From: Candidatus Aenigmatarchaeota archaeon
GTDB lineage: Archaea > Aenigmatarchaeota > Aenigmatarchaeia > QMZP01
Assembly: GCA_043824495.1 (NCBI GenBank)
Contig: JBDRSV010000005.1
Location: 32,001 to 96,000, forward strand
Direction: 5' to 3'
Length of the DNA: 64,000 nt
The translations under genes were made by a program, and so were the position numbers. Below are positions 22,328 through 51,353 of the stretch, in pieces. The notes beneath the pieces were generated by a model, which worked only from the letters and a program-made list of their open reading frames with translations, was not told the DNA's origin and ran no database searches. Every line of letters begins with the position of its first letter. Position 1 is the stretch's first letter.

Positions 22328-24817
22328 CTAAATCTGAATATTTATTCCAGCGTCATCTAGGATTTGCTGAGCTTGTTGTTTTTCTGATTGTGTTGGATTT
22401 GGAGTAGGAACTCCACTCATATCAACATTCCCACAGTCATTCGGATTCTCTGCTCCTGCAAATAAAATGTCTATAAGCCACCCTAAATCTAAAGCGTCAA
22501 TCTGTCCATCACCATTAATATCCCCAGATTCAACAGGAATTGGTTCTGCCCCTCCTGCAAAAAGATAATCAATTAAATAACCGAGATCTAAGGCATCTAT
22601 AAAGCCAGATGCGTCTACATCACCGCATCCACAATCCACATTGTATAATTCACAGACATTGACTTCATTCCCAATTGAAGAGATATATGGCAAAAACGGA
22701 CACCAACCACCTCCCCAAACATCAATCCAATAGTCTAGATTTTCCTCTATATCTATTGGCCTCCCATCACATGTTTCCCCTGGCATCACATCACAAAAAT
22801 CACTAATATCATCTTTAATAATAATCGAACTAGGTTTTACATGCCAACTCCAGGGGGAATTAAAGTTAGCATTGTTTCTAAAGACTCTTCCCCCACCCTC
22901 TCCACCACATAACCCATAATCCCCAACCCAAGCAATTGCATTGTTTATAGACTCCTCATCTGTTACAAGAATTGTGGCAGTGCGTTCGGGAGTTTCAATT
23001 ACAGAACCATTTGTGAGCCCCACAGTTAAATTAAAAAATCTACCTTTTCCGAACCTTTCTATGCAATACCCGTACTCTTCTACACAAACTTTCTCTTTAG
23101 GACAACCGCAAGTGTTGCATTGATCAGACACAAATCCAATATTCCCATTATAGTCATAACCACATAAAGAATAATCCTCGTAGCGATCATCAGAAAAACA
23201 CTCTCCAAATTGAACTTCTGTGTCTGTACCTGGGTCATAACAAACACTACGGGGTATAATTAGAGATATGGCTACTAAAGCCCAATTATCATTTGTTTGT
23301 AAGACTCTTATCTCCATATTATTAAATTCATCAATATACGTCTGACCTTCTTCAAGATATACATACCCATAATCATAACAACCTTGAGAACAATCTCCAA
23401 GAGTAGAGTTTCCTGGATGCAAATTTAAAAGTACTGAATTCCCCAACCAATATCCTACGTTTGTCCCATTTTCATCATGAAGATAATTGTCACCCTTGCC
23501 TAACTTTATTAGGACGCCATTTTCTTGAGTTTTGATAGAGTCAAAACCAGTATTTGTTTTATACTCTAAAAAGTAATAATTCATTCCAAAAACATCAAAA
23601 AGATTTACTTCTGGAGAACCCTCCCCAGCCTTGAATGTAATATTGTTTTCGCTCCAATTAATCGGAATCTTTAATCCTTTTATTTCATTACCTGTGGCCA
23701 GAGTATTTATGGGGCTTATAAAATAAGTTCCTTCAGTCACTTCAGGAACATTCGCGTCAGCAATCCATCCCAAATTAACAAGTCTAAACCCTAGACCAAA
23801 AGTTTTAAACGGATTTGCCTCCCCCATAACATCATAAAAATCGCCGTACTCCCGGTACGTGCATTTGTGACCTAGAGTTGATTCATTTTCTAGTTCTCCA
23901 CCAAACAATTGTTGAGTTTCACTCCCCCCACATATAAGAACAGAAGCATGACCTAATCCAAAATTATGTCCCATTTCATGAGCGAGAATTCCAAAATGGG
24001 GGTTCTCGTGAAAAAAAGTATTGAACCAAATTTGATATAGTTTAACATTGCCTTCATCAGTAAAAGCGTCTAATTTCCCTAAGGAAGCAAGCCCTGGATA
24101 CCAACTACACGAAGTGTTCGGATGAAATACAATTAATCCATCATATTCTGTAAAATTGATAAAAGGATCTATTTTTCTAATTGCATCCGTATAAATATCT
24201 CCTTCAAAACACAAAGATTCATTAAAACTAAAATTTCCAACATAACCAGAACTAACACCGGCTTTCCCGTAGGAAGATTCATTAATAAAAGCATTTGTTA
24301 GATTAAACGTGTAATTCGTATAAGTCATAAAATCAAACTGAGTTTCATTTTCTCTAAAGAAAAAAACAACAGCGTATTTTTGTTCTCCAAGCGTTGGAGG
24401 CCAGGGTTCCAAATCACCGGCATTTTTATCTCCAGTCGTTTCAATAGAATCTACAATAAATTTATCTCCTTCTATAATTCCCAAAACACTAACTTCCCCT
24501 ACATAAACCCTAAGAAAATTATCTTCAAACTCCAACTCATATCTTTTTCCATCATCAGTCCTCATATAATAAGTATATTCTGCTCTATTATTCTCAAAAT
24601 CATCCACAATAATTGTTTCAATGGTCCCTGTAAACTCAATAATATTTGTTTCAGTCTCCAAAGGTACACTTACCTCAGCAGGTTCTGTCATCAAAGGAGC
24701 AACTAAAGGAACCCTAAATTGCCCAGCAGGACTCTCATACACAGAAGAAATAGCAAACACTCCTACTATTACTATGCAAGCAAAAATAATTGAATATGAT
24801 AATGGAGTTAAACCCAT
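22328..24817 (-). CDS. Secreted metzincin metalloprotease (M11/M6-like) with a BP74-like domain and a C-terminal dockerin-like module
   Basis: HEMGHNFGLGHA, Met-turn EYGDFYDVMG; NSPWSWHVKP...CDGRP...WCPF; two EF-hand repeats DVDASGFIDALD and DINGDGQIDALD. Confidence 0.8.
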   Translation of the reverse strand: MGLTPLSYSIIFACIVIVGVFAISSVYESPAGQFRVPLVAPLMTEPAEVSVPLETETNIIEFTGTIETIIVDDFENNRAEYTYYMRTDDGKRYELEFEDNFLRVYVGEVSVLGIIEGDKFIVDSIETTGDKNAGDLEPWPPTLGEQKYAVVFFFRENETQFDFMTYTNYTFNLTNAFINESSYGKAGVSSGYVGNFSFNESLCFEGDIYTDAIRKIDPFINFTEYDGLIVFHPNTSCSWYPGLASLGKLDAFTDEGNVKLYQIWFNTFFHENPHFGILAHEMGHNFGLGHASVLICGGSETQQLFGGELENESTLGHKCTYREYGDFYDVMGEANPFKTFGLGFRLVNLGWIADANVPEVTEGTYFISPINTLATGNEIKGLKIPINWSENNITFKAGEGSPEVNLFDVFGMNYYFLEYKTNTGFDSIKTQENGVLIKLGKGDNYLHDENGTNVGYWLGNSVLLNLHPGNSTLGDCSQGCYDYGYVYLEEGQTYIDEFNNMEIRVLQTNDNWALVAISLIIPRSVCYDPGTDTEVQFGECFSDDRYEDYSLCGYDYNGNIGFVSDQCNTCGCPKEKVCVEEYGYCIERFGKGRFFNLTVGLTNGSVIETPERTATILVTDEESINNAIAWVGDYGLCGGEGGGRVFRNNANFNSPWSWHVKPSSIIIKDDISDFCDVMPGETCDGRPIDIEENLDYWIDVWGGGWCPFLPYISSIGNEVNVCELYNVDCGCGDVDASGFIDALDLGYLIDYLFAGGAEPIPVESGDINGDGQIDALDLGWLIDILFAGAENPNDCGNVDMSGVPTPNPTQSEKQQAQQILDDAGINIQI

Positions 24818-24920
24818 AATATAGTATTGTGTAATAACATATAATAATCATATACAAGAGCTTGAACTATTGTCTTAATCCTTCTCGGGGCTTTATTACA
24901 CTAGAGACCAATGTATCAAT

Positions 24921-25334
24921 ATGCTTGTCAAGAACGTGATGAAGAAGGATGTCACTACAGCTTCAGAGGAGACGACAATCCAGGAAGCGTCAAGAATAAT
25001 GGCGGACAATCATATAGGATGTCTAGTTATTACTAAAAACAATACAGTCACAGGCATAGTCACAGAGTATGATATTTTGAGGTCTGTTGCTGAAGGTAAG
25101 GATGCAGAAAAGAAAACAGTTGCACATATAATGACACCATATATTCATGCTGTCACACCTGACCAGAAACTTGAAGCAGCGATTAAAATCTTGAAAAAGG
25201 AAAGAATAAAAAAACTTCTGGTGATGGACGGAAGAAAGCTGATAGGAATTCTCACAGCTACTGATATTATAATCAGCCAACCACAAATGATATCTGAACT
25301 GAAGTCTGTATTAAAAAAGAAGAGATCAGGTTGA
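24921..25334 (+). CDS. CBS-domain protein
   Basis: Two CBS repeats (VKNVMKKDV...GIVTEYDI; VAHIMTP...GILTATDI). Confidence 0.9.
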   Translation: MLVKNVMKKDVTTASEETTIQEASRIMADNHIGCLVITKNNTVTGIVTEYDILRSVAEGKDAEKKTVAHIMTPYIHAVTPDQKLEAAIKILKKERIKKLLVMDGRKLIGILTATDIIISQPQMISELKSVLKKKRSG

Positions 25335-25444
25335 ATGTCTAGATCGGTGGTGAAAAATGGGAGCCTGAAGAAAAACCTTGTCCTCGGTATACTCCTGACG
25401 GTCAAATGATATGGTAAACGAGTCCGATATACATTGAAAATAAC

Positions 25445-25849
25445 CTAAGTTTTGATCTTCATTGGCTCTAGTTTAAGCGAAGGCATTTTAACTTTTTTCC
25501 CTTCCATTTTAGCTAGTTTGATCTCTACAAAAAGACTAGTTACCATGTCATCAACTGTTTTGAGCACTTTAACCATTGGGCTCTCAACATTCAATACAAA
25601 CATCTTAGCTCTTCCGACTGTTCTTCTTTGTTTTATGATACCAAGATCGATAAATTGTTTGTATATTGAACTCATGGTTGCCCAGGAGATCCCCGATTTT
25701 TTAGCGATCTCAGTAAGACTATAATCGAAGTTTCCGTCAGTATTCAGCAAGAAATCCATGACTTTTATGAATGGAGAATCGCCAAAGACTTTTTTAAAAC
25801 TAGAGTCTCCCATCCGACTTCTATTATTGTTATTGTCCATCCAAGTCAC
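25445..25849 (-). CDS. Winged-helix DNA-binding protein
   Basis: FGDSPFIKVMDFLL...DYSLTEIAKKSGISWATM...RTVGRAKMF. Confidence 0.75.
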   Translation of the reverse strand: MTWMDNNNNRSRMGDSSFKKVFGDSPFIKVMDFLLNTDGNFDYSLTEIAKKSGISWATMSSIYKQFIDLGIIKQRRTVGRAKMFVLNVESPMVKVLKTVDDMVTSLFVEIKLAKMEGKKVKMPSLKLEPMKIKT

Positions 25850-26015
25850 CTCTATTAATGTAAATATTGTATTATAACGCTATGTTTTGTAGCGTTACAC
25901 TTTGTTATATAACTAATTATGGACTATAATCTTTATAAAGGTATGTATTTTGTATATATTTAAACTCATTAATTGAGTTAAGTATTTAAGTACAGAATGT
26001 AAAATATTTCAATGT

Positions 26016-26288
26016 ATGGAAGATTTAGAGAAAATCATACTGAGAACTCTATTGAGGCACAACAAAATTGGAGAGAATTACACAAAAATACAACACGCCA
26101 CTTCAAAAGTGCCTAACAGTACCAAAAGTGCGGACATTAAAAAAGCCATCAAGAATCTTCGTAATGCGGGCTGGATAGAACTGCATAAAAAGAATACCTG
26201 TATTTCTCTAACAGGGAACCGAGGGCGCATAGAAGAGATTAAGAAGCTTATAGGATTTACGAGATCACTTTTTTCTCTGTTATTTTAA
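26016..26288 (+). CDS. Small basic winged-helix-like hypothetical protein
   Basis: IKKAIKNLRNAGWIELHK; divergent from 25445..25849. Confidence 0.55.
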   Translation: MEDLEKIILRTLLRHNKIGENYTKIQHATSKVPNSTKSADIKKAIKNLRNAGWIELHKKNTCISLTGNRGRIEEIKKLIGFTRSLFSLLF

Positions 26289-26447
26289 TCTACTTCTCCT
26301 AATCAACTCAATACCAACAATAAGAACTATCACACCACAAATACCAGCAATAACAATAAGTCCCTGAGTTAAGGTATCCGTGACATAAGTATTCTTATAT
26401 ATGGGGAATAATCGATGTCCCCATTTATTTTTCTTTTATTTATTATA

Positions 26448-27914
26448 TCATTTCAAAGCCGGTCCCTGTAATCCAGGCACAAAATCACAATTACATCCTT
26501 CCCAGCACATGTATTTCTTGTTGAACACCTTACAGAAGTTGTTTACAGATACATGTATAGGTTCTTCGTCCCAAAAGACTCCATCTGTTACGTTTACTGT
26601 GAAATCATATTCTCCGCTGGAGGATGGTCCAGTTTTCCATTGGAAATATGAGCCTGACCAGGTAAATACTGGGTTATCTATGTGGTATGTTAAATCATCT
26701 CCGTTTCTATCCAATGCTTCTGGATAAATTCTTACTAATCCCATTTCATTAACTGTTATATTTTGGAATGGTTCTAGGACAGGTGCTACCGCTTCACTGA
26801 CGTTAATTTGATAGCTTTGTTCATCGAATAAGAAGCCATCGGAGACTCTTAGTGTTACTGTATAATTCCCTGATTGATTATAATTAGGCGACCATGTTAC
26901 CAATCCATTTAGACTGTCTATTATCATTTCTGGTGGGTATTGGATTAAGAAATAATTCAATATGAAACTTCCAGGATAATAAACTTCAACATCATATGAA
27001 TAAAATTCACCTCCCACTACTTCTGTTATGGGGGTTGATGTTATTTCTGGTACAAAGCTTCCGCCAAGTGGTTTGTGATCTATTCCATCAAAAGGACCCG
27101 GAACGATGTAAGTGTATGGGTATCCAGGGTTTGTTTCAAAATCTCCCCAATAGTTTCCCATCACCGAGTTATTCCAATAGTTGTTTTCAGCTTGAACTTC
27201 TTCAAAAGCGTTTATCGAATTATTGTACATAGAATTATTCCAGAATATGTTATTATGCGCTTTATGAACTCTTAGTCCGTATATATTATTCTCGTATAGT
27301 ACGTTTTCAAATAATTGTGCATAATCTGTTTCACCGACAAGAATTCCGTAGTTGTTATTGTGCGCAATGTTTTTTGATAACACACTTCTGTGTGCAAAAT
27401 TCTGATTTGCAATCCCCTGGTTATTCAAAAAAATATGATTTCTAGATATTATGGTGTTTTGACTGCCAATGATTAATAATCCGGCATCAAAGTTATCATG
27501 GACTGTATTATTTTCTAGAGTGTTATTGTTGGCCGCCGAATATATTTTTATTCCGTGAAGAAAATCGGTAACTTCGCAATTTTTGATAATTACATTGTCA
27601 TATCCTTCATTTGAAATGCCTTCATAGAGCATGCTATTAATACCATCTAGTAAATGGCCATTGCAATCTAGTGTTACATTGTTGGCAGCTATTCTAATTG
27701 GTATTCCACTACAGCTTGTGATGTCATACCACATTGTGTGATTAGAAGATAAATAATCACCACATTGACATGCAACGAGATCACCGCATATACCTTCAGG
27801 GCTGTTTATTTCATTGACTTCCAAATTCTCAGCTGATAGTTTCTGTCCATAAACAAAACTAACACTGATAGAAGCAACAATTACACATACTAGTAGTACG
27901 AGAGCAACCCTCAT
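26448..27914 (-). CDS. Secreted right-handed beta-helix (NosD/CASH-like) protein with two Ig/cadherin-like domains
   Basis: Signal peptide; VTLDCNGHLLDG; Asn-ladder repeats; GNYWGD; PEITSTP...GLVTWSP...VTLRVSDG; Cys-rich tail. Confidence 0.8.
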   Translation of the reverse strand: MRVALVLLVCVIVASISVSFVYGQKLSAENLEVNEINSPEGICGDLVACQCGDYLSSNHTMWYDITSCSGIPIRIAANNVTLDCNGHLLDGINSMLYEGISNEGYDNVIIKNCEVTDFLHGIKIYSAANNNTLENNTVHDNFDAGLLIIGSQNTIISRNHIFLNNQGIANQNFAHRSVLSKNIAHNNNYGILVGETDYAQLFENVLYENNIYGLRVHKAHNNIFWNNSMYNNSINAFEEVQAENNYWNNSVMGNYWGDFETNPGYPYTYIVPGPFDGIDHKPLGGSFVPEITSTPITEVVGGEFYSYDVEVYYPGSFILNYFLIQYPPEMIIDSLNGLVTWSPNYNQSGNYTVTLRVSDGFLFDEQSYQINVSEAVAPVLEPFQNITVNEMGLVRIYPEALDRNGDDLTYHIDNPVFTWSGSYFQWKTGPSSSGEYDFTVNVTDGVFWDEEPIHVSVNNFCKVFNKKYMCWEGCNCDFVPGLQGPALK

Positions 27915-27927
27915 AATTAGAATAGAT

Positions 27928-27950
27928 AGAAAGATTTAAAATACTTTTTA
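27928..27950. promoter_or_regulatory. Candidate back-to-back BRE/TATA elements serving divergent genes
   Basis: GAAAGATTTAAAAA on + about 25-30 nt before the ATG at 27973, and AAAAAGTATTTTTAAA on - before the ATG at 27914. Confidence 0.45.
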
Positions 27951-27972
27951 ATCCTCCCTCTAAGATTTTGTT

Positions 27973-30938: not shown

Positions 30939-33035
30939 CTATCTCCTACAAGTTGGGGCTGGATCGCCTGCGAATAAGTGATCAATCATTATAGCCAAAT
31001 CCAATGCAGTTGGAAAACCATCCCCATCTAAGTCAGCAAGCCATGGAGGATCAGGCAGAGGTTCTCCTGCGAACAGTATGTCAATAAGTTTTGCAAGATC
31101 TAACGCTGTGAGGAAGCCGTCATAGTCTAAGTCTCCGCATACAATATTGTTGACAGTTATAGTAACTTCCTGTTCATCATAAAGTTCAGTAGTGTCTGTA
31201 ACTCTGAATGTAACATTATATACTCCAGAATCATTAAATGTTGGAGTCCAGTTGAATAATCCAGTTTGTGGATCAAATGAGTATGGGCTTGGTAGGCCTT
31301 CATCTATTTCGAAGGATAAATCATCTTCATTAGCATCTGTAGCATTTAATTGAATAACTACTGAATATGTTTCATAAACTTCTTGATTGGCAATAGTATC
31401 AAGAACGGGTGGTGTTGGACCAATTATTGCAGTTATCAATTGTGAGTCATTGTTGTTTGAATTATTCATTTCTATTTTTACTAGATCCTCATCAACTCTA
31501 GCTTCTATTAGATGATCACCTATACCAGAAACTATGTGAAGTAGTACAAACTGTTTAAGGTTGTATTTGTTGATATTTTGGAAATCTTCAACAAGAAGTT
31601 CATCATTATCATATATTTTGGTTGAGATGTTTTTCATATTAACTCCTCCAATATTGTTAATAGTAACAGTGATTGTAATTTCTTCGCCATCAATTGGATT
31701 TTCATTGGAAATGTTAATTGTTGGAATTAGATCACCAAACCAGTCAAAGTCGCTGTATGGCATAGTAGGAGTTTGATTACTGTTTGATATATTTCTTGCA
31801 CCAAAACCATGACCATCTACTCCACCACCAGAGTAATAATTCCACATTGGATCAGTTTGTGTCAAATAGTCTGTGTGTCCCATTGCTCTACCAAAAATAT
31901 TAATCACAAAAGCGTCAGTGTAATAGATGTATGGTGGACCCAAGCTGAATGTTCTATCAAGTGTATCTTTGTTGTCATTTAATATTTTGTAGAATCGTTC
32001 TCTATCCATACCTTCTTCATATTCCAGTTTAGATAATAAATGACCTGTAATGTCGTATCCGTGAGATCTCTGAAGCTCTCTGTCATATATAGTAGTATCA
32101 TGATAATCATTTGCAACATAAGCTGCCCATTGATACCCTGAGAATCCGTTTTCTAAATATGTATCAGCTGTTTCTTGGTTAATTGCACCGGATATAGCAT
32201 TAACATTATACATGTGATGTTCAGCAAAGCCTTCTGTCAACCATGATCTAGTGTATATTGGATATGGGTTAATAGAGTGAGACGCTTCATGGAGTGCCGT
32301 ATTCATGTATGGCCACCAATCACCTAATTCACCAGTGTTGTTGTAATATGTGGTCCCATTCACGTAATATGGCTTATTACAACCAGTCTTATACATTGGA
32401 TCAGAGAAAACAACATTAGAGTGTGTAGGAGAAGCATTTCCACCGTAACAGGCTGCAGGATGTCCGTAATTATATATCTCTAAAGGAACTCCAAACCATC
32501 CTTTTGAACTCCAACCAGTTATATTCTTTAGAATTTCATACCTTGGTACGAAATTATCCCAGAAAGCGTCTAATGTTGCCTGGTTGTTCGAATAGAAAAC
32601 ACTTTCGATGTAAATGTCAAGTGAAACATTTCCTTGATCATCAAAATATGGTTTATGCACAAAGGTTGATTCTGGAGAATTTATTTCAACGGGTGTTTTT
32701 ATAATATTTTTAAGGGGCTTTTCTTTTGTTTTTTCTAAAGGCTGTCCTTCTGGATATTGAAGCTCATCAACAACAATTGGGGTTTCTACACCATCAAGAT
32801 TAACAATACCCTTTGCAAAATCAATTTCAAGAATAGAACCCTCTCCTGTTACAACAGTCTTGACGTTTGAGCTATCTCCATTAAGCATCAAAAAGCTGTC
32901 AGTTAAATCAATTGGTTCTACACTTCTTATTTGAGCAGCTGCTTGACCAAAGAAAAATAATGTTACTCCTGTCATTATAGAAAATATGATTAAACTCATT
33001 AAATATTTCTGAATCTTGTCATTCATGATTAACAT
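30939..33035 (-). CDS. Secreted gluzincin-type metallopeptidase with CARDB-like, Ig/cadherin-like and C-terminal dockerin-like modules
   Basis: LHEASHS...WLTEGFAEH (HExxH+E); GDLIPTINIS...TINNIGG (CARDB-like); PPVLDTI...LFNWTPTF; CGDLDYDGFLTALD/ADLDGDGFPTALD. Confidence 0.8.
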   Translation of the reverse strand: MLIMNDKIQKYLMSLIIFSIMTGVTLFFFGQAAAQIRSVEPIDLTDSFLMLNGDSSNVKTVVTGEGSILEIDFAKGIVNLDGVETPIVVDELQYPEGQPLEKTKEKPLKNIIKTPVEINSPESTFVHKPYFDDQGNVSLDIYIESVFYSNNQATLDAFWDNFVPRYEILKNITGWSSKGWFGVPLEIYNYGHPAACYGGNASPTHSNVVFSDPMYKTGCNKPYYVNGTTYYNNTGELGDWWPYMNTALHEASHSINPYPIYTRSWLTEGFAEHHMYNVNAISGAINQETADTYLENGFSGYQWAAYVANDYHDTTIYDRELQRSHGYDITGHLLSKLEYEEGMDRERFYKILNDNKDTLDRTFSLGPPYIYYTDAFVINIFGRAMGHTDYLTQTDPMWNYYSGGGVDGHGFGARNISNSNQTPTMPYSDFDWFGDLIPTINISNENPIDGEEITITVTINNIGGVNMKNISTKIYDNDELLVEDFQNINKYNLKQFVLLHIVSGIGDHLIEARVDEDLVKIEMNNSNNNDSQLITAIIGPTPPVLDTIANQEVYETYSVVIQLNATDANEDDLSFEIDEGLPSPYSFDPQTGLFNWTPTFNDSGVYNVTFRVTDTTELYDEQEVTITVNNIVCGDLDYDGFLTALDLAKLIDILFAGEPLPDPPWLADLDGDGFPTALDLAIMIDHLFAGDPAPTCRR

Positions 33036-33167: not shown

Positions 33168-33172
33168 ATAAG

Positions 33173-35257
33173 TCAGACTTTCATGACTTTGTCGCATTCA
33201 CGTCCGACGCGTCCACCTCGGCATACTTCGGATATCATGAAATGAGCAGAATGATCTGCTTGGCGAGATATGGAATCGTTCAAATTACATCCACACGCTT
33301 CTTGTATACAGTTCATGATAGCCTTTCTTGCAAATTCCGTGCTAGCATTGTCAGTGTCTGGCAGGTTAGTGATACTCAGTGGCACATCTGTCAGGCGGTC
33401 AGTCTTCAGATTTCTTTCCGTGAGACCATGATCACCGCCCGTAGCAACCTTCCATGCCATTTCAAGCGCACGTGTCATCGGAGCAGCGTGGTCGATCAGC
33501 CATCCCACAGCCTCGGATGCATCAATAGAATGTCCACTCAAGAGCATGTAGATGATTTTAGGCCAATCAGTTCTACGTGCCTTGCGAAATGGCCAGTGGC
33601 ATCCTTCCATGCCAGGGACAACCGGAAGCGTCACCTCTGGCATGCCGAGCTTTGCATCATTAACTGAAATCAGAAAGTGACAATGCATGAGAAGCTCAAG
33701 CATACCACCTAGACAGCGCTTGCCATTGACAAACCCAACGGATACCTTGAACTTATCATTGAGCCTTCTGGCTGTACGAGACCACTGCATGGATATTCTG
33801 TGTCCAGTATGTACATTCTCAAGCGCAGGATAGAACTCGCTTGTGTCCGCGCCGACTAGCTGAGTGGAGAGATGGAAGTCGCCGGAGACAATCACGCGTT
33901 CGATTCCTTCGGCTTTCAGCCAATCAATGGCTCGGTTGAGTTCAGCGTCGACATCGCTGTTGTAACTCTCGCGACTTATGGCGATGACACCAACTGTTCC
34001 ATCATGTTCTGCGTTGACGTACAACTGCTGCCATTCTGGTGTGTCCATATGACCAAAGACACTCGGACACCAGCAGACGCTCGCTGCTTCTGGATGTGAC
34101 AGGTGATAAGATTCCACGGTCCTGATCACATTATCCGGACCAAGTCCACGAATGACAGCGAGTATACCGTGATTGAACTGAGCACAGAGTTCACCGATGG
34201 CGTTGATGTGGGAGAGATGGCCGCGATTTTCATGAAGCATGAGACTGGTCATTTGGAACAGAGGACCGAGAATCCATGTTTTGAACTCGTCAACTCCGGC
34301 TGTATCCAAACTCCAGTTCACAAGAGGACGGAAGTGATCTGGTGGATACCAGTCTTGTCTACTTTCCTTATGTTCCATCAACTCAGGAGTTGGCGCGAAC
34401 AATTCAGCACCATAATGCTCATGTAAGTGGTGGAGACATGACCAGGTAAGGAAGTTCGCACCAGCCGCACCGATCGCGTCATGCGCTCGGAACGGGTTCG
34501 GACCAAGCAACTTGCGGATAAATTTGTCGATCTTCCAGTAGGGCATGTTGCTGGCCTGGTGATAACGCAATCCGGCGAGCGTCAGGCCGCAGAACAAGAC
34601 ATCGAGAACAAACGACCATTTGTCAGCAACAGGAATCGGGATCATACCCAAAGCCCAGAAGAGCTTATCGGTAGATGTGTCATCTCCCACAGTCTCCCAC
34701 ACTTTGCTGACCTCATGTGGGAATGCCGGATGTGCGATGCCAACTCCCAGTTCTGAACTTGGGAATCCCGAGGTTACGGATCTGATGTGGATACCCGGGA
34801 ATGCTGCTCTGAAGAGACCGTAGTGATCCTTCTTGACACTGAGAATCTCTGGAATTGCTTCCAACAGAAATTTCGGATTGAATTGGCCGAGTTCACCTGG
34901 AAGAGTAGTTCCGTCATAACTCATACGGATAATACTCCTCATGATCTCATCAGCCTTTGACCTACCAAAGGCGCGTACCAATCCTGGGTACTGTCTCCCA
35001 ATGCCATCAGGTGCACTGGGGAAATCTAGTCCGATGATACGAACACCGTGTGGTTGAAGCCGGGAACCGAGTTGCATTGTCTTGCCAGCACCAACAATTC
35101 CATTGGCGCCGGAGATGACAAGTGATCCTCGATTACTTGCTTTACCAAACACATTCGAAACTGCATCGGATGCAGTGACAGGTAATCCATTCTTGAAGAT
35201 CCCGAGAACAGTTCCGAGACCCAATGTTTGGATTGTTGAAGTTCTCATCATTTTCAT
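33173..35257 (-). CDS. 3-hydroxyacyl-CoA dehydrogenase-like / enoyl-CoA hydratase-like fusion protein
   Basis: N-terminal Rossmann ISGANGIVGAG, LLEAIPEIL; C-terminal crotonase motifs CLGGMLEL, LGMPEVTLPVVPGMEG. Confidence 0.75.
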   Translation of the reverse strand: MKMMRTSTIQTLGLGTVLGIFKNGLPVTASDAVSNVFGKASNRGSLVISGANGIVGAGKTMQLGSRLQPHGVRIIGLDFPSAPDGIGRQYPGLVRAFGRSKADEIMRSIIRMSYDGTTLPGELGQFNPKFLLEAIPEILSVKKDHYGLFRAAFPGIHIRSVTSGFPSSELGVGIAHPAFPHEVSKVWETVGDDTSTDKLFWALGMIPIPVADKWSFVLDVLFCGLTLAGLRYHQASNMPYWKIDKFIRKLLGPNPFRAHDAIGAAGANFLTWSCLHHLHEHYGAELFAPTPELMEHKESRQDWYPPDHFRPLVNWSLDTAGVDEFKTWILGPLFQMTSLMLHENRGHLSHINAIGELCAQFNHGILAVIRGLGPDNVIRTVESYHLSHPEAASVCWCPSVFGHMDTPEWQQLYVNAEHDGTVGVIAISRESYNSDVDAELNRAIDWLKAEGIERVIVSGDFHLSTQLVGADTSEFYPALENVHTGHRISMQWSRTARRLNDKFKVSVGFVNGKRCLGGMLELLMHCHFLISVNDAKLGMPEVTLPVVPGMEGCHWPFRKARRTDWPKIIYMLLSGHSIDASEAVGWLIDHAAPMTRALEMAWKVATGGDHGLTERNLKTDRLTDVPLSITNLPDTDNASTEFARKAIMNCIQEACGCNLNDSISRQADHSAHFMISEVCRGGRVGRECDKVMKV

Positions 35258-36459
35258 TTGCCACTGCTCCCTTCATCAACCTTGAAGATCGCCGCTATAC
35301 CAACATCACCGGCAGCACAACCGAAGATGAGAACATATCCGCCACCGAGCGAGACCGCCTCTACAAAGGATTCAATCAGAACTCTCGTAAGAGTCGGTCC
35401 TTGCGGATGACCCCATACAAGCGGGCAGCCGGTTTTGTTCATGTTGTGCCAGTCGTAGTCCATGACCTTCGCGAAGATGGCGTCGTTGACTGCGAACGGA
35501 TTGTGGTTTTTCACCACGATCATATCAGCCATTGTCAGTCCGGTGCGGCGCAGAAGTTTTTGTACCGCCAACGCAGGTGCTTCGGGCATGAGACTCGGAT
35601 GCGCGCGTACTTCGGTTTTTGCGATAAAGGTAATATCGATCTCTGGTTGCGAACTGAAGTCTGAAACTCTCTCCTTGTTCACAACCAGTAGGCACGCCAT
35701 GCCGTCAGATGCATGTGTCTGTGTGCCGGTGGTCACGCAGGTATCGAGTTCGAAAAGGCGGTTCAATCCATCCATCGTCAGCTTGCGGACGCCGAAATCG
35801 TCGTCGATTGTTCCCATGGGCTTGCCCTGGAGATTGAGGATTTCGAGCGGGACAAGCACCTTGTCGAGAAAGCCAGATTCTTTGGCTTGAAAATACTGCT
35901 CATGCCGATGGAAGGCGATCTCGTCCACTTCTTTACGGTTGATCTTGTGCTTCCTTGCGGCCTCTCCTCCGCAAGCAATCATTGCTTTTCCGGTTGCCGG
36001 ATCGAAACCAAAGTTGTCCCATACATCGGCGAGTGCTTCTGTCCGACGATAACTGCGACGCTCTGGGAAGACACCAGCCGGAGAGTCACTTGTCCGGTCG
36101 AATGTCAGAACGCCGACGACATCGTGCGAACCACTGTTCACCTCTGCACCCGCAAGGAGCACTGCCTGTAGACCTGTAGCACATGCCTGTTCAACGTGGA
36201 ATCCTGGGATTCGAATTCCCATACAACTGGCCACCAACGGGGCATTCCAGAATTTCCAGTGCCACGGGATAGTTGATCCGATGACAAGGTACTCGAGCAG
36301 ACTCTTGGGCACTTTCCTTAACCCAAGAATCCTGTTCATTGCTTCCCCGGCGAACTGGCCTGGATTGACCTCCGCCAGGGGTGAAGTTTGCCAGGCAGGG
36401 AAATAACTACTCCCCCAAGTCCCGTATGGGATCCTGGCATTTGGGTACATCGGTTGCAT
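35254..36459 (-). CDS. Thiolase family protein (acetyl-CoA acyltransferase)
   Basis: VEQACATGLQA (catalytic Cys), THASDGMA, WGHPQGPT, FGCAAGDVG; AAGGAGAGG SD; ATGA overlap with the downstream gene. Confidence 0.88.
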   Translation of the reverse strand: MQPMYPNARIPYGTWGSSYFPAWQTSPLAEVNPGQFAGEAMNRILGLRKVPKSLLEYLVIGSTIPWHWKFWNAPLVASCMGIRIPGFHVEQACATGLQAVLLAGAEVNSGSHDVVGVLTFDRTSDSPAGVFPERRSYRRTEALADVWDNFGFDPATGKAMIACGGEAARKHKINRKEVDEIAFHRHEQYFQAKESGFLDKVLVPLEILNLQGKPMGTIDDDFGVRKLTMDGLNRLFELDTCVTTGTQTHASDGMACLLVVNKERVSDFSSQPEIDITFIAKTEVRAHPSLMPEAPALAVQKLLRRTGLTMADMIVVKNHNPFAVNDAIFAKVMDYDWHNMNKTGCPLVWGHPQGPTLTRVLIESFVEAVSLGGGYVLIFGCAAGDVGIAAIFKVDEGSSGK

Positions 36460-42479: not shown

Positions 42480-43574
42480 CTATTTTGCAAGAGATTGTAC
42501 GCGTGCTAGGATTTCTGGTTGGATGTAGTGGTGTATTGTGACATTGTAACCTTCTTTCCAGGTTTGTTCTTTTTTGTCAAATCTTTTGTGTCCTAGATCA
42601 GCTGCTATACTTGTAAATAGTTCTCTTATTTCCTTTTTTGTGGCGGTTGTGTGTGTTGATAAGAATTGTTTCGCTTCTTTAGTTGCATAATAAGATCTTA
42701 CTATATGTGGATAGAATTCCTTTCCACAGTATTTCTTGAAAGCTTTCTTGAAGTGCTTGTCATCTAAAGGGTGACCTGTATGGCTTGTAAATACAAATGA
42801 TGATGATTCTAAAGGCTGAAGCATACTATATAGTCTTTCTATATATATCCCTGGGAATTCTCTTGTTATGTTTCTAGGAACCCCATCCTTTGCTTTATAT
42901 TTGAACGTGACTTCTTTCCCATCGATCTTGATGTCAGATTTCTTTAGTGTAGTAAGACCTTTATGACCATGAGCTTTGTAGTAAATTTCATTGCCTATTC
43001 TCATATGTGTTTTGAGTAGAGTGTACATGGGAACTGCTATGGCATCCTCTTTATCGCTTAAAGCTGCTAATACATTTTGCTCTAACTTAGAATAGTATTT
43101 ACCGAATTCTTCAACTGATTTGTATTTCTTTTTTGTGAATTCAGCTTTCTTTTCAAGGGTGTATACGTAAGAGTAAGTTCCTCCTGGGTTCCTGTATAAT
43201 ACATCCCAGTGGTCATTTGACTCTTCATCATGCACAGTGAGCTGTTCTGCGAAGAGAGAATAGGCCTTATCTAGCTTTCTACCATCAGGTAATATGTTTA
43301 TTCTAGCTCCTTGACATTTCCCTTCGGGTGATAGTTGTCCTTTTAGAAATGTTGGGTCCTTCTTATCTATTAGGAAGTCATAGCTGCTATGAAACATGAA
43401 TAGTTTTACAACTTCCATTGTTTCAGTAAATTCTCTATCTATTTTCTTCCATGTAGAAGCCGTTCTTATTACAGTATCTAAACCTCTAGCTTTAATTCTG
43501 ATTGTTCCAGCAAGAAGAGGCTTATATTTTTTTCGTTTTCTTGGTTTCTTAAATCCAGGCTTTTTCATAGCCAT
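42480..43574 (-). CDS. DNA topoisomerase IB (compact form)
   Basis: MRIGNEIYYKAHGHKGLTTL, FKYKAKDG, FYPHIVRSYYAT, IAADLGH, IHHYIQP; the R-K-R-H-Y catalytic set is present. Confidence 0.8.
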   Translation of the reverse strand: MAMKKPGFKKPRKRKKYKPLLAGTIRIKARGLDTVIRTASTWKKIDREFTETMEVVKLFMFHSSYDFLIDKKDPTFLKGQLSPEGKCQGARINILPDGRKLDKAYSLFAEQLTVHDEESNDHWDVLYRNPGGTYSYVYTLEKKAEFTKKKYKSVEEFGKYYSKLEQNVLAALSDKEDAIAVPMYTLLKTHMRIGNEIYYKAHGHKGLTTLKKSDIKIDGKEVTFKYKAKDGVPRNITREFPGIYIERLYSMLQPLESSSFVFTSHTGHPLDDKHFKKAFKKYCGKEFYPHIVRSYYATKEAKQFLSTHTTATKKEIRELFTSIAADLGHKRFDKKEQTWKEGYNVTIHHYIQPEILARVQSLAK

Positions 43575-45798: not shown

Positions 45799-45934
45799 GA
45801 TTCTAAGTTATCCTCTCGGTATAAAAAGAATTATGGACTTGAAATGCACATTTCTACTCCTATCACTTAAATATAGTCTTCTGTCCAATTCAAGTTTAGG
45901 TGAAAAAGACCTTAAAAATCCAGAGGTGGAGTGA

Positions 45935-46576
45935 ATGAACGTGATATATGCGATGCTTGCAATATTTGTTGTGAGCGTTGCTACAGTTTCGGGCGCATAT
46001 GCCTTGGGACCAAGCCTGTTGGGACCAGCAAATGAAGAAGTTAAAAACGCACTAGCTAACGGAGACTATAATGCCTTCGTCGCATTAATGCAAGACAGAA
46101 TTCCAGAAACAATAACAGAAGAGAGATTTAACATGCTAGCTGGCAGATTTGCTACACATGAGGCAATGATGACAGCAGTAGAAAATGAAGACTATGATGC
46201 ATGGACATCTGCAATCTCGGATGAATATCCAAGAAAGGCAACAAGCCTTACTCAGGATGACTTCCAACAAATGATTGACAGACACGCATCAATGGAAGAA
46301 ATTAGATTGGCTATAGAAAATCGAGACTATGATGCTTGGTTAGAAGCCCAATCCAATCTCCAATTCGGATCAAAGTTCACACAACTTATAACTGAAGATG
46401 AATTTGATACGTTTGTGGACATGCATAATGCCAAAATGAACGGTGATTTTGATACCGCTAAAGAGCTCGCAGAACAGCTCGATTTAGATGGTTTCAGAAA
46501 CGGCTTTAGTAAACATGGCAACCCCCATGGAAAAGTTGGTTTTATGCACGGTGAGTGTATGGGAGCGGGAGCTTAG
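45935..46576 (+). CDS. Secreted helical protein with internal repeats
   Basis: Signal peptide; repeated A(I/V)ENxDYDAW; GGAGTG SD. Confidence 0.65.
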   Translation: MNVIYAMLAIFVVSVATVSGAYALGPSLLGPANEEVKNALANGDYNAFVALMQDRIPETITEERFNMLAGRFATHEAMMTAVENEDYDAWTSAISDEYPRKATSLTQDDFQQMIDRHASMEEIRLAIENRDYDAWLEAQSNLQFGSKFTQLITEDEFDTFVDMHNAKMNGDFDTAKELAEQLDLDGFRNGFSKHGNPHGKVGFMHGECMGAGA

Positions 46577-46646
46577 TCTCCCCTCCTCATTCTTTCTTAA
46601 ACAGCTAGATGCAAACCTTTATATAATTTAATATTGTTCTAGTCTT

Positions 46647-47036
46647 ATGCCAATACATGCATATGCTTGTGGAGAAGATGAATGTAATTTTACTAGTGAT
46701 TACCTTATTCGTAATGCGGCTGATATTCCAACTGTGTGTCCTTGGTGTGAAACTGTTGGTTCTTTAGCAAGAGATTACAAGAGCGAGGGATTTGCTGCTC
46801 ATACATCTAGAAGAGCAGGTTCTGGTCACATTGTAGATTTTAAAACACGTCCAGATTTAGATGCTCCTCCATTAACTGGAGTGCTTGGTTTTCCATTGCT
46901 GGATGGTAGTATTTTATCTGCGCCAGATGGAGATTATCATGTTATAGAAGATAGTGGCGATCTTAGAATTAGACATGTTTTTGCTTCGAGAAATGGACAA
47001 GCAGAATATGTCCTCAAAAGTGTTGAGAGAAAGTGA
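46647..47036 (+). CDS. FmdB-like zinc-ribbon protein
   Basis: MPIHAYACGEDEC...CPWCE. Confidence 0.6.
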   Translation: MPIHAYACGEDECNFTSDYLIRNAADIPTVCPWCETVGSLARDYKSEGFAAHTSRRAGSGHIVDFKTRPDLDAPPLTGVLGFPLLDGSILSAPDGDYHVIEDSGDLRIRHVFASRNGQAEYVLKSVERK

Positions 47037-47085
47037 TTACTTCTTGAAAAGAAAAAAGATTTAAGCAACTGAAGCTAATTTTTAA

Positions 47086-47454
47086 TTGATGATAGAACTC
47101 TCGTTGATTATAGTTGCAATTGCAGCTCTTGTAGTTATAATTGCTGTTGTAGGAGCAGTTGAGTGGAAAAAGAAAGAGAAGCATAAAGAACCAGATTACT
47201 ACATATTCTTTTTAATGGGTTTGATATGGGTAATTATAGGAATATTTTCATTGTTCATGTATGATGATTTTGAATTTAGTCCATTATTTACTTTAGGAAT
47301 AATATTTCTAGCTGTGGGATTAGCAAACAAGAGTAAATGGAAGAAACAGAAAACACCTTTAGCTCACTCACATAAAATGCTTGCTGTGATTAGTGTGTTA
47401 ATAGTAGTGTTTGTAATTGCGCTTGCTTTCTTATTAGCAAGAGGATTTATCTAA
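47086..47454 (+). CDS. Small four-TM membrane protein
   Basis: Four hydrophobic helices. Confidence 0.6.
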   Translation: MMIELSLIIVAIAALVVIIAVVGAVEWKKKEKHKEPDYYIFFLMGLIWVIIGIFSLFMYDDFEFSPLFTLGIIFLAVGLANKSKWKKQKTPLAHSHKMLAVISVLIVVFVIALAFLLARGFI

Positions 47455-47455
47455 T

Positions 47456-48100
47456 TCAACCACACAAGAATCTAATGAGTTCTGGTATTGATCTTCCACC
47501 TAATTTTGGGGTTTCTTCTGCTAATTCTGGCCAATTGAAATCATATACACTACCTATTACATTTCCAAGCTCAGCTGCTAAAATAGTATCTTCTGGACTA
47601 ACACATAAGAGACTCTTTCCCCATACTTCTATTGCTTTGCCTGCATCGATGGGTTTATCAGTTAAGTAAGCAACAGGTTCAAAATCATCTTGTGCCATCT
47701 CGCTTCCTACTGCTCTAAAAGAATCTGGATTTTCCCTACTTCTACTACCAAAAGAATAATAACCATCTACTAAAGGATCTATTCCCAGAGCTTTGTATGT
47801 TCTCTGAGACTCATCAACTGTTGCTCCTGCAGCTACAACAAAACCTAACCCTAAATCTCTTATAGCTGTGATGACGTCTGGAATAATAGGATGTATAAGC
47901 TCACGTGTTGGTTTATCAAGTCTCTGTGTCCTAATCGCAGCTGTTACAAGTTTGTATGCATATCTTCTTCTTTGACTTGATGGTTGTCTTTCTATGTCAT
48001 CCCATATTAATTGCCGTCCCAAATACGCCTTAATATGAGGAACTTCTAATAAACTTGGAGTTAGGGTATCATCTGTGTTAGTAGCTACTACGTATTTCAT
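47456..48100 (-). CDS. Degenerate HAD-like protein
   Basis: VATNTDDTL resembles HAD motif I without the first Asp; YLTDKPIDA resembles motif IV. Confidence 0.4.
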   Translation of the reverse strand: MKYVVATNTDDTLTPSLLEVPHIKAYLGRQLIWDDIERQPSSQRRRYAYKLVTAAIRTQRLDKPTRELIHPIIPDVITAIRDLGLGFVVAAGATVDESQRTYKALGIDPLVDGYYSFGSRSRENPDSFRAVGSEMAQDDFEPVAYLTDKPIDAGKAIEVWGKSLLCVSPEDTILAAELGNVIGSVYDFNWPELAEETPKLGGRSIPELIRFLCG

Positions 48101-48287
48101 ATTTGATCACTAGAAGTAAAATTTAAAAGGGTTTTATGTCATCTTAATATCTCATAATCTCTTGCCAAATTTTTTGATTTCTTAAGTGTAAGGTCAACAT
48201 TTATACCATGCTCTTCCAAGACCTGCATCATCTCATCAAGTTTTCCTCACCTAAAATAATGTCCGTTGATGTCACTGATTCTTCCTG

Positions 48288-51200
48288 CTAGCAAGTAGGT
48301 TCAGGTGCACCTGCAAACAAGTGGTCAATCATAATTGCTAGATCAAGAGCTGTTGGGAAACCATCTCCGTCCAGATCAGCTATCCATGGAGGATCAGGTA
48401 ATGGGTGTCCAGCGAATAGAATGTCAATCATGATTGCAAGGTCAAGAGCTGTTAAGAAACCATCTTTGTCCAGGTCGCCGCAAATATCTAGAGTAGAGAT
48501 TTCAAGTTCTCTGAAATTTATGTCATAATTTCCATTTTGATCTGTAGCTGAAATCGCATACAAATACTCGTCTCCTATGGTACCTTCAACATTCCAGCTT
48601 ACAATAACTGAAGTGCCTGGATTGATTGATCCTAGAGGCTGTGAGATTGGATCTATTACAAAAAAATCATCACTTATATTCAAGGAAGCGACAGTGTTGA
48701 TGAGAGTATAATCTCCGAGATTTGTTATTTCAGCTGAGATTGTGGTTGTTTCACTTACTTCTGGAGATTCTGGAAAATGCATCATACCACTTACTTGAAT
48801 AACTGGAGGCGATAAGACATCTATTCCTTCTACTATTGTCTTGAATCCGGTGTCAGATGAATCTGCTGCTAAAACAAAGTTGTGTTCGCCTGAGTGTATT
48901 ATTTTCATAGGAATATTAGCTACATCTGTTTGTCCTGCTGACAGGCTTGATATGGCATATGTAACATCAGAAGTGGCATAGAACGGTGTTATTAGTCTCA
49001 CTTCTATATCATTAATTTGTGATCCTAGTAGATTTTCAACTGAAACAGTTGCAGTGAAAGTCTGATTCACATCTACTACTAAAGGGATTGTGAGTGTCAC
49101 ATCAAGACCTGGGTCAACTGTGAAGAAGGAGAGGTCAAAACAATCTTCGGTAGTTGTTGTTACTTCAAAATCTCCGTTATCAACATAATCTGTACTTGTG
49201 ATTATAAAGCTCTTGGAAACTGAGCTAGAAGGCGGTATGGTAAGACTATCAAAGTCATTTAAGATTAAAATTTCGCTTGGTATTGTGTGCTGTGGAGCAA
49301 ATTGGACAGTCTCTTCTATTAGAGGTGTTCTTACATTTATTTCTGAATTCACGTTTTGTGTAATTGCTCCATTGTTCTGGAATTCAATTGTCAAATTCAC
49401 ATCTTCTCCGAAAATATAATCTGATTTGTCTGTAGATGTTGTGATGGTAAGATCACAGGAGTTTAGGCTTGAGAATGATTTTGGAGGCATAGGAGGCGTG
49501 GGTTTTGATGTATTATATTCTTTTATAAGACTTGTCTTATTTCCTGTGTTAGGATCTTGAGTAACTGGAGCAGCTGTAGGTCTTCCAGTTCTTGGTCCAC
49601 CTTCACAAGAATGATCTCTCCAATAGTCCTCTTGTGTTACACCTGTGTCTTCGTAGCCACCAGTTGCATCTAGAATCAGCCACTGAGTTCCATTCCAGTA
49701 TTCTGCCCAGCAGTGATAGTTCCATAAGCTTGTAGCAGTTTTTCTAACCCATTGTCCTGTAACAGCCCTTGCTGGAATATTCTCTGCTCTGAGTTTACCA
49801 ACCAGAACCATACAGTTATCACTACATTCGCCATCTGCCCAGCCGCTTGGACCTGTTGATCCATTTGAGTGAGCTAATAAAGCATTTAGGTATGTTTTAA
49901 TGTTTGCATAACAACCGTTTCCGTAAGTTGTATGCTCAGTTACCCATTCTCTCTTTTTCTTTGCAGCATCATCCTCGTCTGTCGTTCCATTTTCAATCTC
50001 ATTTATTTCTCTAGTATACAGCGCATTATAAATATCAAGTTGTACTACTCTTCCAATCTCTCTAGCAGGGCTCCATCTTGTGTCATAAAGTGACTCGTTT
50101 GTTCCGTGTTTCCATTGCAACCACTCTGCATTTGACCAGCTTGCAGGTTTCGTCATACTGAAAATAACTGTAAAATCTCTTGTTATGTCTATTGTGTCTA
50201 TTCCATTGGTTATTGAAATTGTAGCGGTGTATTTACCAATTGGTCCAGCAGCAGATGTTGAGATCTTGAAAACTTCGTAATGAAATCCTTCTGGTGCAAT
50301 TAATTTTTTCTTGCTTAACACCTCGGTTGCATTCAGTTTGTTACCTAAAGAATCAACAACAGTTATGTTTTTAGCTGATAGGTTGTTTCTTTTCACAATA
50401 TAAATATAGACATCTTCTCCTCTCCTGTAAGTTGTAGCTTCATATCTCTTGTCATTGTTTGCAACTGTGACACTTATCTCGTTCAGTATCAAAGGTGTGA
50501 CAGCATTCACTCTAATGTCAAAGAAAATATTATCAAAGCCACCAAAATTATCATCCACCAAAACCTCAATAAAATAATCCCCAGCATCTCCAATACCTGT
50601 CTGCCAGAAAAAGTCTCCAGTAATAGGATCTATTACTGGACAATCCAAAACTCCACATTCAGCTTGTGTTAGTGAATAAGTGACAAGATCGTCTCCGCAT
50701 ATTTGCATGTCTAAGTCAACTGCATTGGCAGAAGTAAAAGCGAAATCTCCTTCGTTAATTGTAATGGTGGAAATTGGATCTAGTTCTGGAAGCCTGTTGA
50801 TATTAAGGACGTTTATAGAAACGTCTGAAGATCCTAGAGGAACATAACATTCTTGGCCTGCTTCAGAGGTAAATATATAATATTCAGACTGACAGTTATT
50901 AGGAGTCCAAGTAAATGTGCCTTGAACTTCTCCTGGAGCTGATACTGTTGGATAAGTTGCTCCTGGAGGTAAATTATTTGACCATGTGCAAATAGGTAGT
51001 GCTGGGTTTGGAGGATTCCATCCCCAAGTCATATAAAATTCAAGTAGCTCTCCTTCTTCTACATCACAAAAACATTCTCCAAAATTCACACATTCTGGCT
51101 CTTCAAAGTTACAATAATACTGAGCGTCTTTGTTTGATGAATCGGATGAAACCATGCTTTGTATAGAAGATGGTATAGGCTCAATTTGTAATGTATTTTG

Positions 51201-51353
51201 AGAACCTGAAGTTATTATTAGATTTTTTGTCTCTTCTGTAAAAGAAATTCGACCTGGTTTTTGAGTAAGCTCAATTGCATTTATGGTACCCATAGCTAGA
51301 ATTATTCCAAGAACCAAAGACACAACAATTGTAATTTTCGTTGCAGCTAGCAA
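48288..51353 (-). CDS. Secreted transglutaminase-like (Cys-His-Asp) protein with Ig/CARDB-like domains and a C-terminal dockerin-like module
   Basis: GECSDNCMVLVGKLRAENIPARAVTG, YHCWAEYW, LILDATG; NRLPELDPI cadherin-like domain; CGDLDKDGFLTALD/ADLDGDGFPTALD. Confidence 0.82.
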   Translation of the reverse strand: MLAATKITIVVSLVLGIILAMGTINAIELTQKPGRISFTEETKNLIITSGSQNTLQIEPIPSSIQSMVSSDSSNKDAQYYCNFEEPECVNFGECFCDVEEGELLEFYMTWGWNPPNPALPICTWSNNLPPGATYPTVSAPGEVQGTFTWTPNNCQSEYYIFTSEAGQECYVPLGSSDVSINVLNINRLPELDPISTITINEGDFAFTSANAVDLDMQICGDDLVTYSLTQAECGVLDCPVIDPITGDFFWQTGIGDAGDYFIEVLVDDNFGGFDNIFFDIRVNAVTPLILNEISVTVANNDKRYEATTYRRGEDVYIYIVKRNNLSAKNITVVDSLGNKLNATEVLSKKKLIAPEGFHYEVFKISTSAAGPIGKYTATISITNGIDTIDITRDFTVIFSMTKPASWSNAEWLQWKHGTNESLYDTRWSPAREIGRVVQLDIYNALYTREINEIENGTTDEDDAAKKKREWVTEHTTYGNGCYANIKTYLNALLAHSNGSTGPSGWADGECSDNCMVLVGKLRAENIPARAVTGQWVRKTATSLWNYHCWAEYWNGTQWLILDATGGYEDTGVTQEDYWRDHSCEGGPRTGRPTAAPVTQDPNTGNKTSLIKEYNTSKPTPPMPPKSFSSLNSCDLTITTSTDKSDYIFGEDVNLTIEFQNNGAITQNVNSEINVRTPLIEETVQFAPQHTIPSEILILNDFDSLTIPPSSSVSKSFIITSTDYVDNGDFEVTTTTEDCFDLSFFTVDPGLDVTLTIPLVVDVNQTFTATVSVENLLGSQINDIEVRLITPFYATSDVTYAISSLSAGQTDVANIPMKIIHSGEHNFVLAADSSDTGFKTIVEGIDVLSPPVIQVSGMMHFPESPEVSETTTISAEITNLGDYTLINTVASLNISDDFFVIDPISQPLGSINPGTSVIVSWNVEGTIGDEYLYAISATDQNGNYDINFRELEISTLDICGDLDKDGFLTALDLAIMIDILFAGHPLPDPPWIADLDGDGFPTALDLAIMIDHLFAGAPEPTC

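Follow-up and report, generated by a model that had tools for sequence, protein, structure and literature searches.

A dockerin tag shared by unrelated exported peptidases, and a single cohesin, in the genome of a DPANN archaeon

Why would unrelated exported enzymes of one archaeon end in the same small module, and what could that module bind? The question is raised by a 64,000-nucleotide stretch of the genome of a Candidatus Aenigmatarchaeota archaeon (GenBank assembly GCA_043824495.1, contig JBDRSV010000005.1, here C5, positions 32,001 to 96,000; this whole stretch is the window, and positions given without a contig name refer to it). An earlier note on the window, made from the letters alone, described a dockerin-like tag on three secreted protein-modifying enzymes and proposed that a common scaffold or anchor gathers them in a cellulosome-like protease complex. 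The genome is a metagenome-assembled genome (MAG) of a DPANN archaeon, 1.01 Mb in 29 contigs, 80% complete and with about 36% guanine plus cytosine (GC). It encodes the archaeal ribosomal protein L31e and lacks the bacterial L28, by which its domain of life was assigned; the assembly yielded no 16S rRNA. The genome-wide search with hidden Markov models (HMMs) that the note had recommended gave about ten dockerin-bearing genes and one cohesin. We conclude that the tags of the window are real dockerins, members of one specificity group carried by unrelated exported hydrolases. That they bind the cohesin encoded on another contig is a prediction from module identity and co-occurrence.

One dockerin type on unrelated exported enzymes

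The three open reading frames (ORFs) lie open on the minus strand where the earlier note had placed them, at 22328–24817 (829 aa), 30939–33035 (698 aa) and 48288–51353 (1021 aa), and each begins with a hydrophobic leader. The C-terminal dockerin was recovered in all of them by Pfam Dockerin_1 (PF00404, dockerin type I; curated gathering cut-off 22.9 bits), with 41.5, 29.8 and 32.6 bits, respectively. Delimited from the Cys two residues ahead of the first calcium loop to the Cys past the second helix, the modules occupy 22433–22627 (aa 731–795), 30948–31139 (aa 633–696) and 48291–48482 (aa 958–1021), again on the minus strand. Each is a duplicated calcium loop and helix with a Cys on both flanks, and all six half-repeats fit segments of about 22 residues, in which a 12-residue loop (Asp or Asn at positions 1, 3 and 5, Asp at position 12) is followed by a helix. 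The Ala-Leu pair (A-L) that the note had seen at the specificity positions stands at loop positions 10/11 in all six, and Ile-Asp (I-D) likewise occupies positions 17/18 in 6/6. The nearest solved dockerin is 8X39, the double dockerin of an S8 protease of Clostridium thermocellum (expectation value, E, 2e-5).

The modules at 30948–31139 and 48291–48482 are identical at 57 of 64 residues, exactly as counted by hand in the earlier note, and at 140 of 192 nucleotides; their codon differences comprise 31 synonymous and 7 non-synonymous changes, and the similarity breaks off abruptly upstream of the first Cys. By the Nei–Gojobori method, the proportion of synonymous differences (pS) was 0.84, which is saturation, and that of non-synonymous differences (pN) 0.095. 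Because synonymous sites are saturated and pN is low, the module is under strong purifying selection, which the note had suspected from third codon positions, and recent gene conversion was rejected as the source of the 57/64 identity. The match is an old module duplication or transfer, retained by selection.

The enzymes that carry these modules differ in their catalytic domains. The first is a putative metzincin-type metallopeptidase with the motif HExxHxxGxxH at aa 280, a BP74_N-like domain and, after the dockerin, a 34-aa tail; Reprolysin_5, Reprolysin_3 and Reprolysin_4 match it at 24.2, 20.6 and 17.1 bits, all below their cut-offs. The second (30939–33035) consists of a signal peptide, a catalytic domain with HEASH and WLTEGFAE, a CARDB domain, a He_PIG immunoglobulin-like (Ig) domain and the dockerin. 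Its catalytic domain had no family match in Pfam or NCBIfam, and a sequence search against the PDB found nothing. It belongs to a family of at least 70 proteins in DPANN and Zixibacteria-type genomes (Dockerin_1 is on record for 16 of these), with orthologues in MAGs titled Nanoarchaeota and Candidatus Woesearchaeota, and HExxH and WLxEGF-E are near-invariant across 47 homologues. The AlphaFold model (predicted local distance difference test, pLDDT, 89) had only M1 aminopeptidases as its top Foldseek matches, at modest strength (E 3e-5, query-normalised TM-score 0.36–0.45). Since sequence searches gave no family, the label rests on motif and fold: judged by its model, the protein is a gluzincin with an M1-like fold that stands outside family M1.

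The third enzyme (48288–51353) is transglutaminase-like, with 42.8 bits for Transglut_core (PF01841; cut-off 23), candidates for the Cys-His-Asp triad in the expected motifs (Cys aa 510, His aa 547, Asp aa 562), Ig/CARDB-type repeats and the dockerin at its end. A TTG start yields a signal peptide; the database copy starts at an ATG 20 codons downstream and is without one. This protein may be a protease, a cross-linker or a deamidase, all three of which fit its sequence.

Dockerins across the genome were searched for with the Pfam model over six frames and with an HMM derived from the modules of this genome, and the domains of their carriers were assigned by Pfam scans. Eight of the roughly ten dockerin-bearing genes encode a peptidase or transglutaminase-like domain: the metzincin, the M1-like gluzincin, the transglutaminase-like enzyme, one C25 peptidase and four S8 peptidases. 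Two of those outside the window, a C25 gingipain-like peptidase with an NHL propeller (C23:544–3672) and an S8 subtilase with an I9 propeptide (C9:1140–3134), carry the same dockerin type above the Pfam cut-off. We call it type A: A-L at 10/11, I-D at 17/18, a helix ending in LFAG and the flanking Cys pair. Type A thus sits on five unrelated catalytic domains, with A-L and I-D in 10/10 half-repeats, and falls into subgroups A1 (metzincin and C9 S8), A2 (gluzincin and transglutaminase-like) and A3 (C25). Nearly all dockerin modules of the genome have Cys flanks, and a disulfide between them, clasping the termini of the module, is a reasonable inference. The cargo is more uniformly proteolytic than the window could reveal, C25 and S8 peptidases encoded elsewhere sharing the dockerin type.

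The two A1 enzymes also have in common a tail of about 34 aa after the dockerin (22328–22432 in the metzincin), ending QQAQQILDDAGINIQI. Over their last 99 aa they are identical at 84/99 residues and 257/297 nucleotides, and by this comparison the exchange of C-termini between metzincin and S8 is far more recent than that between gluzincin and transglutaminase-like enzyme.

The other dockerin genes are less uniform. An anchored S8 giant of 3981 aa (C10:86633–98575; S8, CBM96, LamG and FG-GAP domains) has an internal dockerin whose second half is type A. It is the only dockerin protein with carbohydrate-binding-type domains (CBM96, LamG/Laminin_G_3), and Pfam scans of the roughly ten genes found no glycoside hydrolase domain. 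A second dockerin type, type B, occurs on three S8 proteins: one with a beta-helix, which runs from C29:1–3237 into C9:1–369, a truncated paralogue of it at the end of contig C4, and one with FG-GAP repeats (C24:49575–53690), whose type-B-like dockerin was detected only by the genome-derived HMM (35 bits). The proteins encoded by the 3' end of the C29 gene and by the first ORF of C9 overlap (C29:1–60, C9:1–140), so these contigs join within a type-B dockerin. C4 ends inside the close paralogue, and the assembly seems to break at repeated dockerin genes. Finally, a lipoprotein-like protein of 1394 aa (C5:123226–127407) has 5–6 heterogeneous tandem dockerins. Encoded about 27 kb past the end of the window, it has a lipobox-like N-terminus (..LVSGC), Cys-rich repeats and PKD domains. 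This poly-dockerin protein resembles an inverted scaffoldin and could bridge several cohesin carriers.

Could such modules be calcium-binding, EF-hand-like tails that stabilise or solubilise their enzymes and dock on nothing? Weak sub-threshold EF-hand matches over the poly-dockerin protein and two type-B fragments would suit that explanation. A stabiliser would need calcium ligands and a hydrophobic core, not identical exposed pairs, yet the surface residues at the recognition positions are kept on five unrelated enzymes while synonymous sites are saturated. With a real cohesin in the genome and co-occurrence of the two modules across genomes (both described below) also speaking against it, we regard a purely stabilising role as quite unlikely.

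The cohesin and its occurrence with dockerins

The window contains no cohesin, as the earlier note had reported, and neither does the rest of contig C5 by the Pfam model or the family HMM. Genome-wide, Pfam Cohesin (PF00963) has a single site, at aa 471–640 of a 3096-aa ORF at C24:26948–36235. It scores marginally (25.1 bits when the domain is scanned by itself, 17.5 within the whole protein, against a cut-off of 24.1), and we therefore tested the assignment in three further ways. An HMMER scan of 1.84 billion representatives returned 233 homologues, some with up to 8 repeats, and all 59 aligned short homologues of the domain match Pfam Cohesin (best 3e-18). A search of the PDB with the single sequence found nothing, but the family profile matches 31 solved cohesin sequences, among them 3l8q (7e-13), 2vn5 (1e-10) and 2xdh of Archaeoglobus fulgidus (7.5e-4). 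The AlphaFold model (pLDDT 91.5) is all-beta, in keeping with the nine-stranded beta jelly-roll of cohesins, and only cohesins stand at the top of its Foldseek matches: 1g1k (6.6e-10), then 2vn5/2vn6, then 2xdh (target-normalised TM-score 0.84). We conclude that the C24 cohesin is genuine.

Its carrier opens with a predicted signal peptide, followed by an M6 metallopeptidase directly before the cohesin (TIGR03296 205 bits, Pfam M6 67 bits). Beyond the cohesin come about 2300 residues of Ig/PKD-type stalk (PKD and Big_13 repeats), and at the C-terminus one hydrophobic transmembrane helix leads into a cytoplasmic tail of about 125 aa. In this layout a long stalk, anchored in the membrane, holds the socket at its far end, beside a protease.

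A second cohesin was sought in the assembly with the Pfam model, with jackhmmer from the C24 domain and with the 59-sequence family HMM run with --max, and none was found in its 1.01 Mb. A marginal match on C19 (E 9e-4) was rejected as a second cohesin, being an archaeal type IV pilin with CARDB. The assembly also has no dockerin-bearing carbohydrate-active enzyme and no scaffold with a carbohydrate-binding module (CBM). Without a multi-cohesin scaffoldin, the term cellulosome-like complex in the earlier note overstates the case, and a one-socket display fits better. What stands of its common scaffold or anchor is the anchor, a cohesin on a membrane-anchored surface protein; a scaffoldin that gathers several enzymes is what fell away. 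Relatives of the same family and order do have multi-cohesin proteins and cohesin-plus-dockerin adaptors (up to 10 cohesin matches in genome G024; 3–8 stretches in P0006, P0017 and P0088), and the poly-dockerin protein could cross-link several cohesin carriers. Even so, given one cohesin module and no carbohydrate-active enzymes among the dockerin proteins, a true cellulosome-like complex, with a multi-socket scaffold holding many hydrolases at once, is unlikely here.

The two modules are also found together in related genomes. Of 41 genomes in the same order, searched at E 1e-4 or better, 12 had both modules, 2 a dockerin only, 1 a cohesin only and 26 neither. In a phylum sample of 150 genomes, from which the window's own genome was excluded (E 1e-5 or better), both modules were found in 14, a dockerin only in 12 (with a single match each), a cohesin only in 4 and neither in 120. 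These figures are counts to which no statistical test was applied, and related genomes are not independent. A cohesin was present in every genome of the phylum sample with four or more dockerin matches; the genome of the window, with 10 matches, ranks second. Orphan dockerins are nevertheless common, 12 of the 26 dockerin-bearing genomes of the phylum sample being without a Pfam-detectable cohesin, and their frequency would suit a stabilising role.

The dockerins themselves vary among genomes. An orthologue of the gluzincin in another Nanoarchaeota MAG is 57% identical and has a quite different dockerin flavour; the flavour is genome-specific, a pattern known from the species-specific matching of cohesin–dockerin pairs. 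The A2 subtype, which is Cys-flanked and has a PPW linker, occurs in public data at 56–82% identity, on C25, S8, BNR/sialidase-like, LamG, M36 and arylsulfotransferase-type proteins. The best of these matches (82%) is on a C25 peptidase gene at 10001–13087 of JAEMOI010000354.1 in genome L037 (GCA_017973895.1), in which S-L replaces A-L at 10/11. The gene content of that contig is bacterial, with GGDEF/CHASE2 and a six-domain S1 protein. The catalytic domain of the L037 enzyme is only 24% identical to the archaeal C25, against 82% for the dockerin, so the module moves, or is conserved, independently of its cargo and across domains of life. This suggests that the Cys-flanked dockerin has moved between domains of life.

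Docking on one socket and its alternatives

We favour a minimal, non-cellulosomal display in which type-A hydrolases dock on the C24 cohesin, at a probability of about 0.5. After export, the dockerin would fold round two calcium ions and a disulfide between the flanking Cys would probably clasp its ends. It would then plug into the genome's single cohesin, aa 471–640 of the C24 protein, and each giant could present a single interchangeable hydrolase next to its own M6 domain and well away from the membrane. The purpose may be cell-bound protein degradation, that is scavenging, or attack on the surface of a partner, in an organism with a reduced genome. The remodelling of a host S-layer and the cross-linking part of the transglutaminase-like enzyme, both put forward in the note, would be conjectural. 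The earlier note would have taken a genome without a cohesin or other binding partner, together with a module that folds as a simple stabiliser, as evidence against docking; a cohesin was found, on C24, and its pairing with the tags is what we infer.

Several observations weigh against this arrangement. There is one cohesin, with a marginal Pfam score, for about ten dockerin genes, and the three type-B S8 proteins or the heterogeneous poly-dockerin protein could equally be its partners. The genome is 80% complete and may have more cohesins than the assembly shows. Both C5 and C24 come from a MAG, and the leader motifs common to several contigs (see below) argue for one organism, short of proof. 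To these points are added the orphan dockerins of the phylum and the 82%-identical A2 copy on a bacterial C25 peptidase, which means that the subtype is not private to this genome.

The same observations can be read as pointing to another partner for type A: a cohesin encoded in the ~20% of the genome that the assembly lacks, the cohesin of another organism (a host or neighbour, for example) or a surface ligand other than a cohesin, with the C24 cohesin serving type B or the poly-dockerin protein. Two distinct dockerin types and a poly-dockerin protein for one cohesin, the incompleteness of the genome, the occurrence of A2 on bacterial and other archaeal enzymes with its best match on a bacterial contig, and the 12/26 genomes without detectable cohesin all favour it, as does the documented binding of dockerins to cohesins of other species (PMC12484212). 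The order-level counts, with both modules in 12 genomes and only one of them in 3, argue the other way, and type A outnumbers the other groups and is the best conserved, so that a genome-encoded partner is expected for it. Moreover, the best structural matches of the C24 cohesin are cohesins of C. cellulolyticum, whose natural dockerins have Ala-Leu or Ala-Ile type pairs. We consider another partner possible but rather doubtful. The tags might instead, or also, plug into cohesins on other cells, those of a host or of neighbouring bacteria, and so deliver mixed proteases onto a foreign surface; the excess of about ten dockerin genes over one cohesin, the 82%-identical bacterial module and cross-species binding in bacteria are the grounds for this idea, which we hold to be very unlikely.

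Neighbouring genes, known systems and meaning

Six large exported proteins have a near-identical N-terminal leader, MGL(T/S)PxSYSIIFAC..., with about 20 hydrophobic residues and then SSVYxxPAGxFR. They are encoded at C4:9122–11704, C4:12016–16503, C5:54331–56847 (the metzincin, 22328–24817 of the window), C9:1140–3134, C29:1–3237 and C24:49575–53690; four of the six are peptidases, and the other two lack any Pfam domain. A cleaved signal peptide would usually have a shorter hydrophobic stretch, so that the leader may act as a signal-anchor or as a sorting signal specific to the lineage.

Other genes of the window may serve export. A 689-aa protein at 6666–8735 (plus strand) has three DsbA/Thioredoxin_4 domains (369 bits) and is a candidate extracytoplasmic disulfide-forming enzyme, which would fit the many Cys-rich exported proteins and the Cys-flanked dockerins. 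The gene adjoining that of the metzincin (20619–21701, minus strand) encodes a SurA-like, PPIC-type peptidyl-prolyl isomerase with an N-terminal hydrophobic segment, and from its sequence it may assist the folding of exported proteins. The stretch 51946–59096 (minus strand), immediately upstream of the transglutaminase-like gene, holds a Cys-rich RHS/YD-repeat ORF of 1268 aa and an overlapping ORF of 1114 aa with no Pfam match; no dockerin was found in either by the Pfam scan or the genome-derived HMM. At 33173–36459 (minus strand) GC rises to 46%, compared with about 36% elsewhere, over a thiolase-like gene and an ORF of 694 aa that weakly matches enoyl-CoA hydratase. Ribosomal RNA was rejected as the content of this GC-rich stretch at 32–36 kb, which gave no rRNA match in Rfam and holds thiolase-type genes; the stretch may have been acquired horizontally. 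A 364-aa protein at 42480–43574 (minus strand) matches the catalytic core of eukaryotic-type topoisomerase IB (PF01028, 52.6 bits).

Dockerin-tagged peptidases are known already from clostridia and Cloacimonadota, and archaeal cohesin–dockerin pairs from Archaeoglobus and anaerobic methanotrophic archaea (ANME). The double dockerin of the C. thermocellum S8 protease (PDB 8X39/8X3A) binds the cell-bound ScaD, and a cysteine peptidase of Ruminococcus flavefaciens is found on ScaE (PMC12484212). As in those systems, a type-I-like dockerin stands at the C-terminus of a peptidase, and their partner is likewise a cell-bound cohesin carrier rather than an enzyme-integrating scaffoldin (PMC12484212). 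Unlike in clostridial and ruminococcal cellulosomes, where peptidases are accessory to glycoside hydrolases, here they are nearly the whole cargo, and the carrier is a transmembrane-anchored archaeal giant with its own M6 peptidase, in place of S-layer homology (SLH) or sortase anchoring. Each enzyme here has one dockerin with a flanking Cys pair, in contrast to the double dockerin of the clostridial S8 protease.

A cellulosome-like complex for polypeptides and polysaccharides has been proposed for Candidatus Stygibacter, of the Cloacimonadota (PMC8542988). It resembles the present system in its signal-peptide-bearing enzymes with C-terminal dockerins, including S8 and C25 gingipain-like peptidases, in the surface degradation of polypeptides and in being known from genomes only. 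Stygibacter differs in being a bacterium, with a non-catalytic scaffoldin of 3755 aa that combines tandem cohesins and CBMs and with a cargo that includes glycoside hydrolases, whereas here there is a single cohesin, no glycoside hydrolase domain and no CBM-bearing scaffoldin. Non-cellulosomal cohesin and dockerin modules have been reported from Archaeoglobus fulgidus and from ANME-1 and ANME-2 (PMC9012536, citing Peer et al. 2009). With these the window's genome shares archaeal modules unrelated to cellulose degradation, the absence of a classical large scaffoldin and a cohesin whose model superposes on 2xdh. ANME cargo consists mainly of substrate-binding and S-layer proteins, compared with eight peptidase or transglutaminase-like proteins in this 1 Mb DPANN genome. 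Our literature search found no paper on DPANN dockerins. What sets the present system apart is its near-purely proteolytic cargo, a socket fused with an M6 peptidase on an anchored giant stalk, the Cys-flanked module and the extent of the expansion for a genome of 1 Mb.

DPANN archaea, with their reduced genomes, presumably live on other cells or at their expense, and to our knowledge little has been established about how they process external protein or attack the surface of a partner. The present findings offer a concrete hypothesis for a DPANN surface machine, in which at least five unrelated hydrolases share one docking tag and one socket stands at the tip of an anchored protease. If the predicted binding holds, cohesin–dockerin biology would come to include an archaeal system with a single socket and an almost exclusively proteolytic cargo, and would provide a handle for locating the enzymes on cells. 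If it fails, the many orphan dockerins of the phylum would need another explanation.

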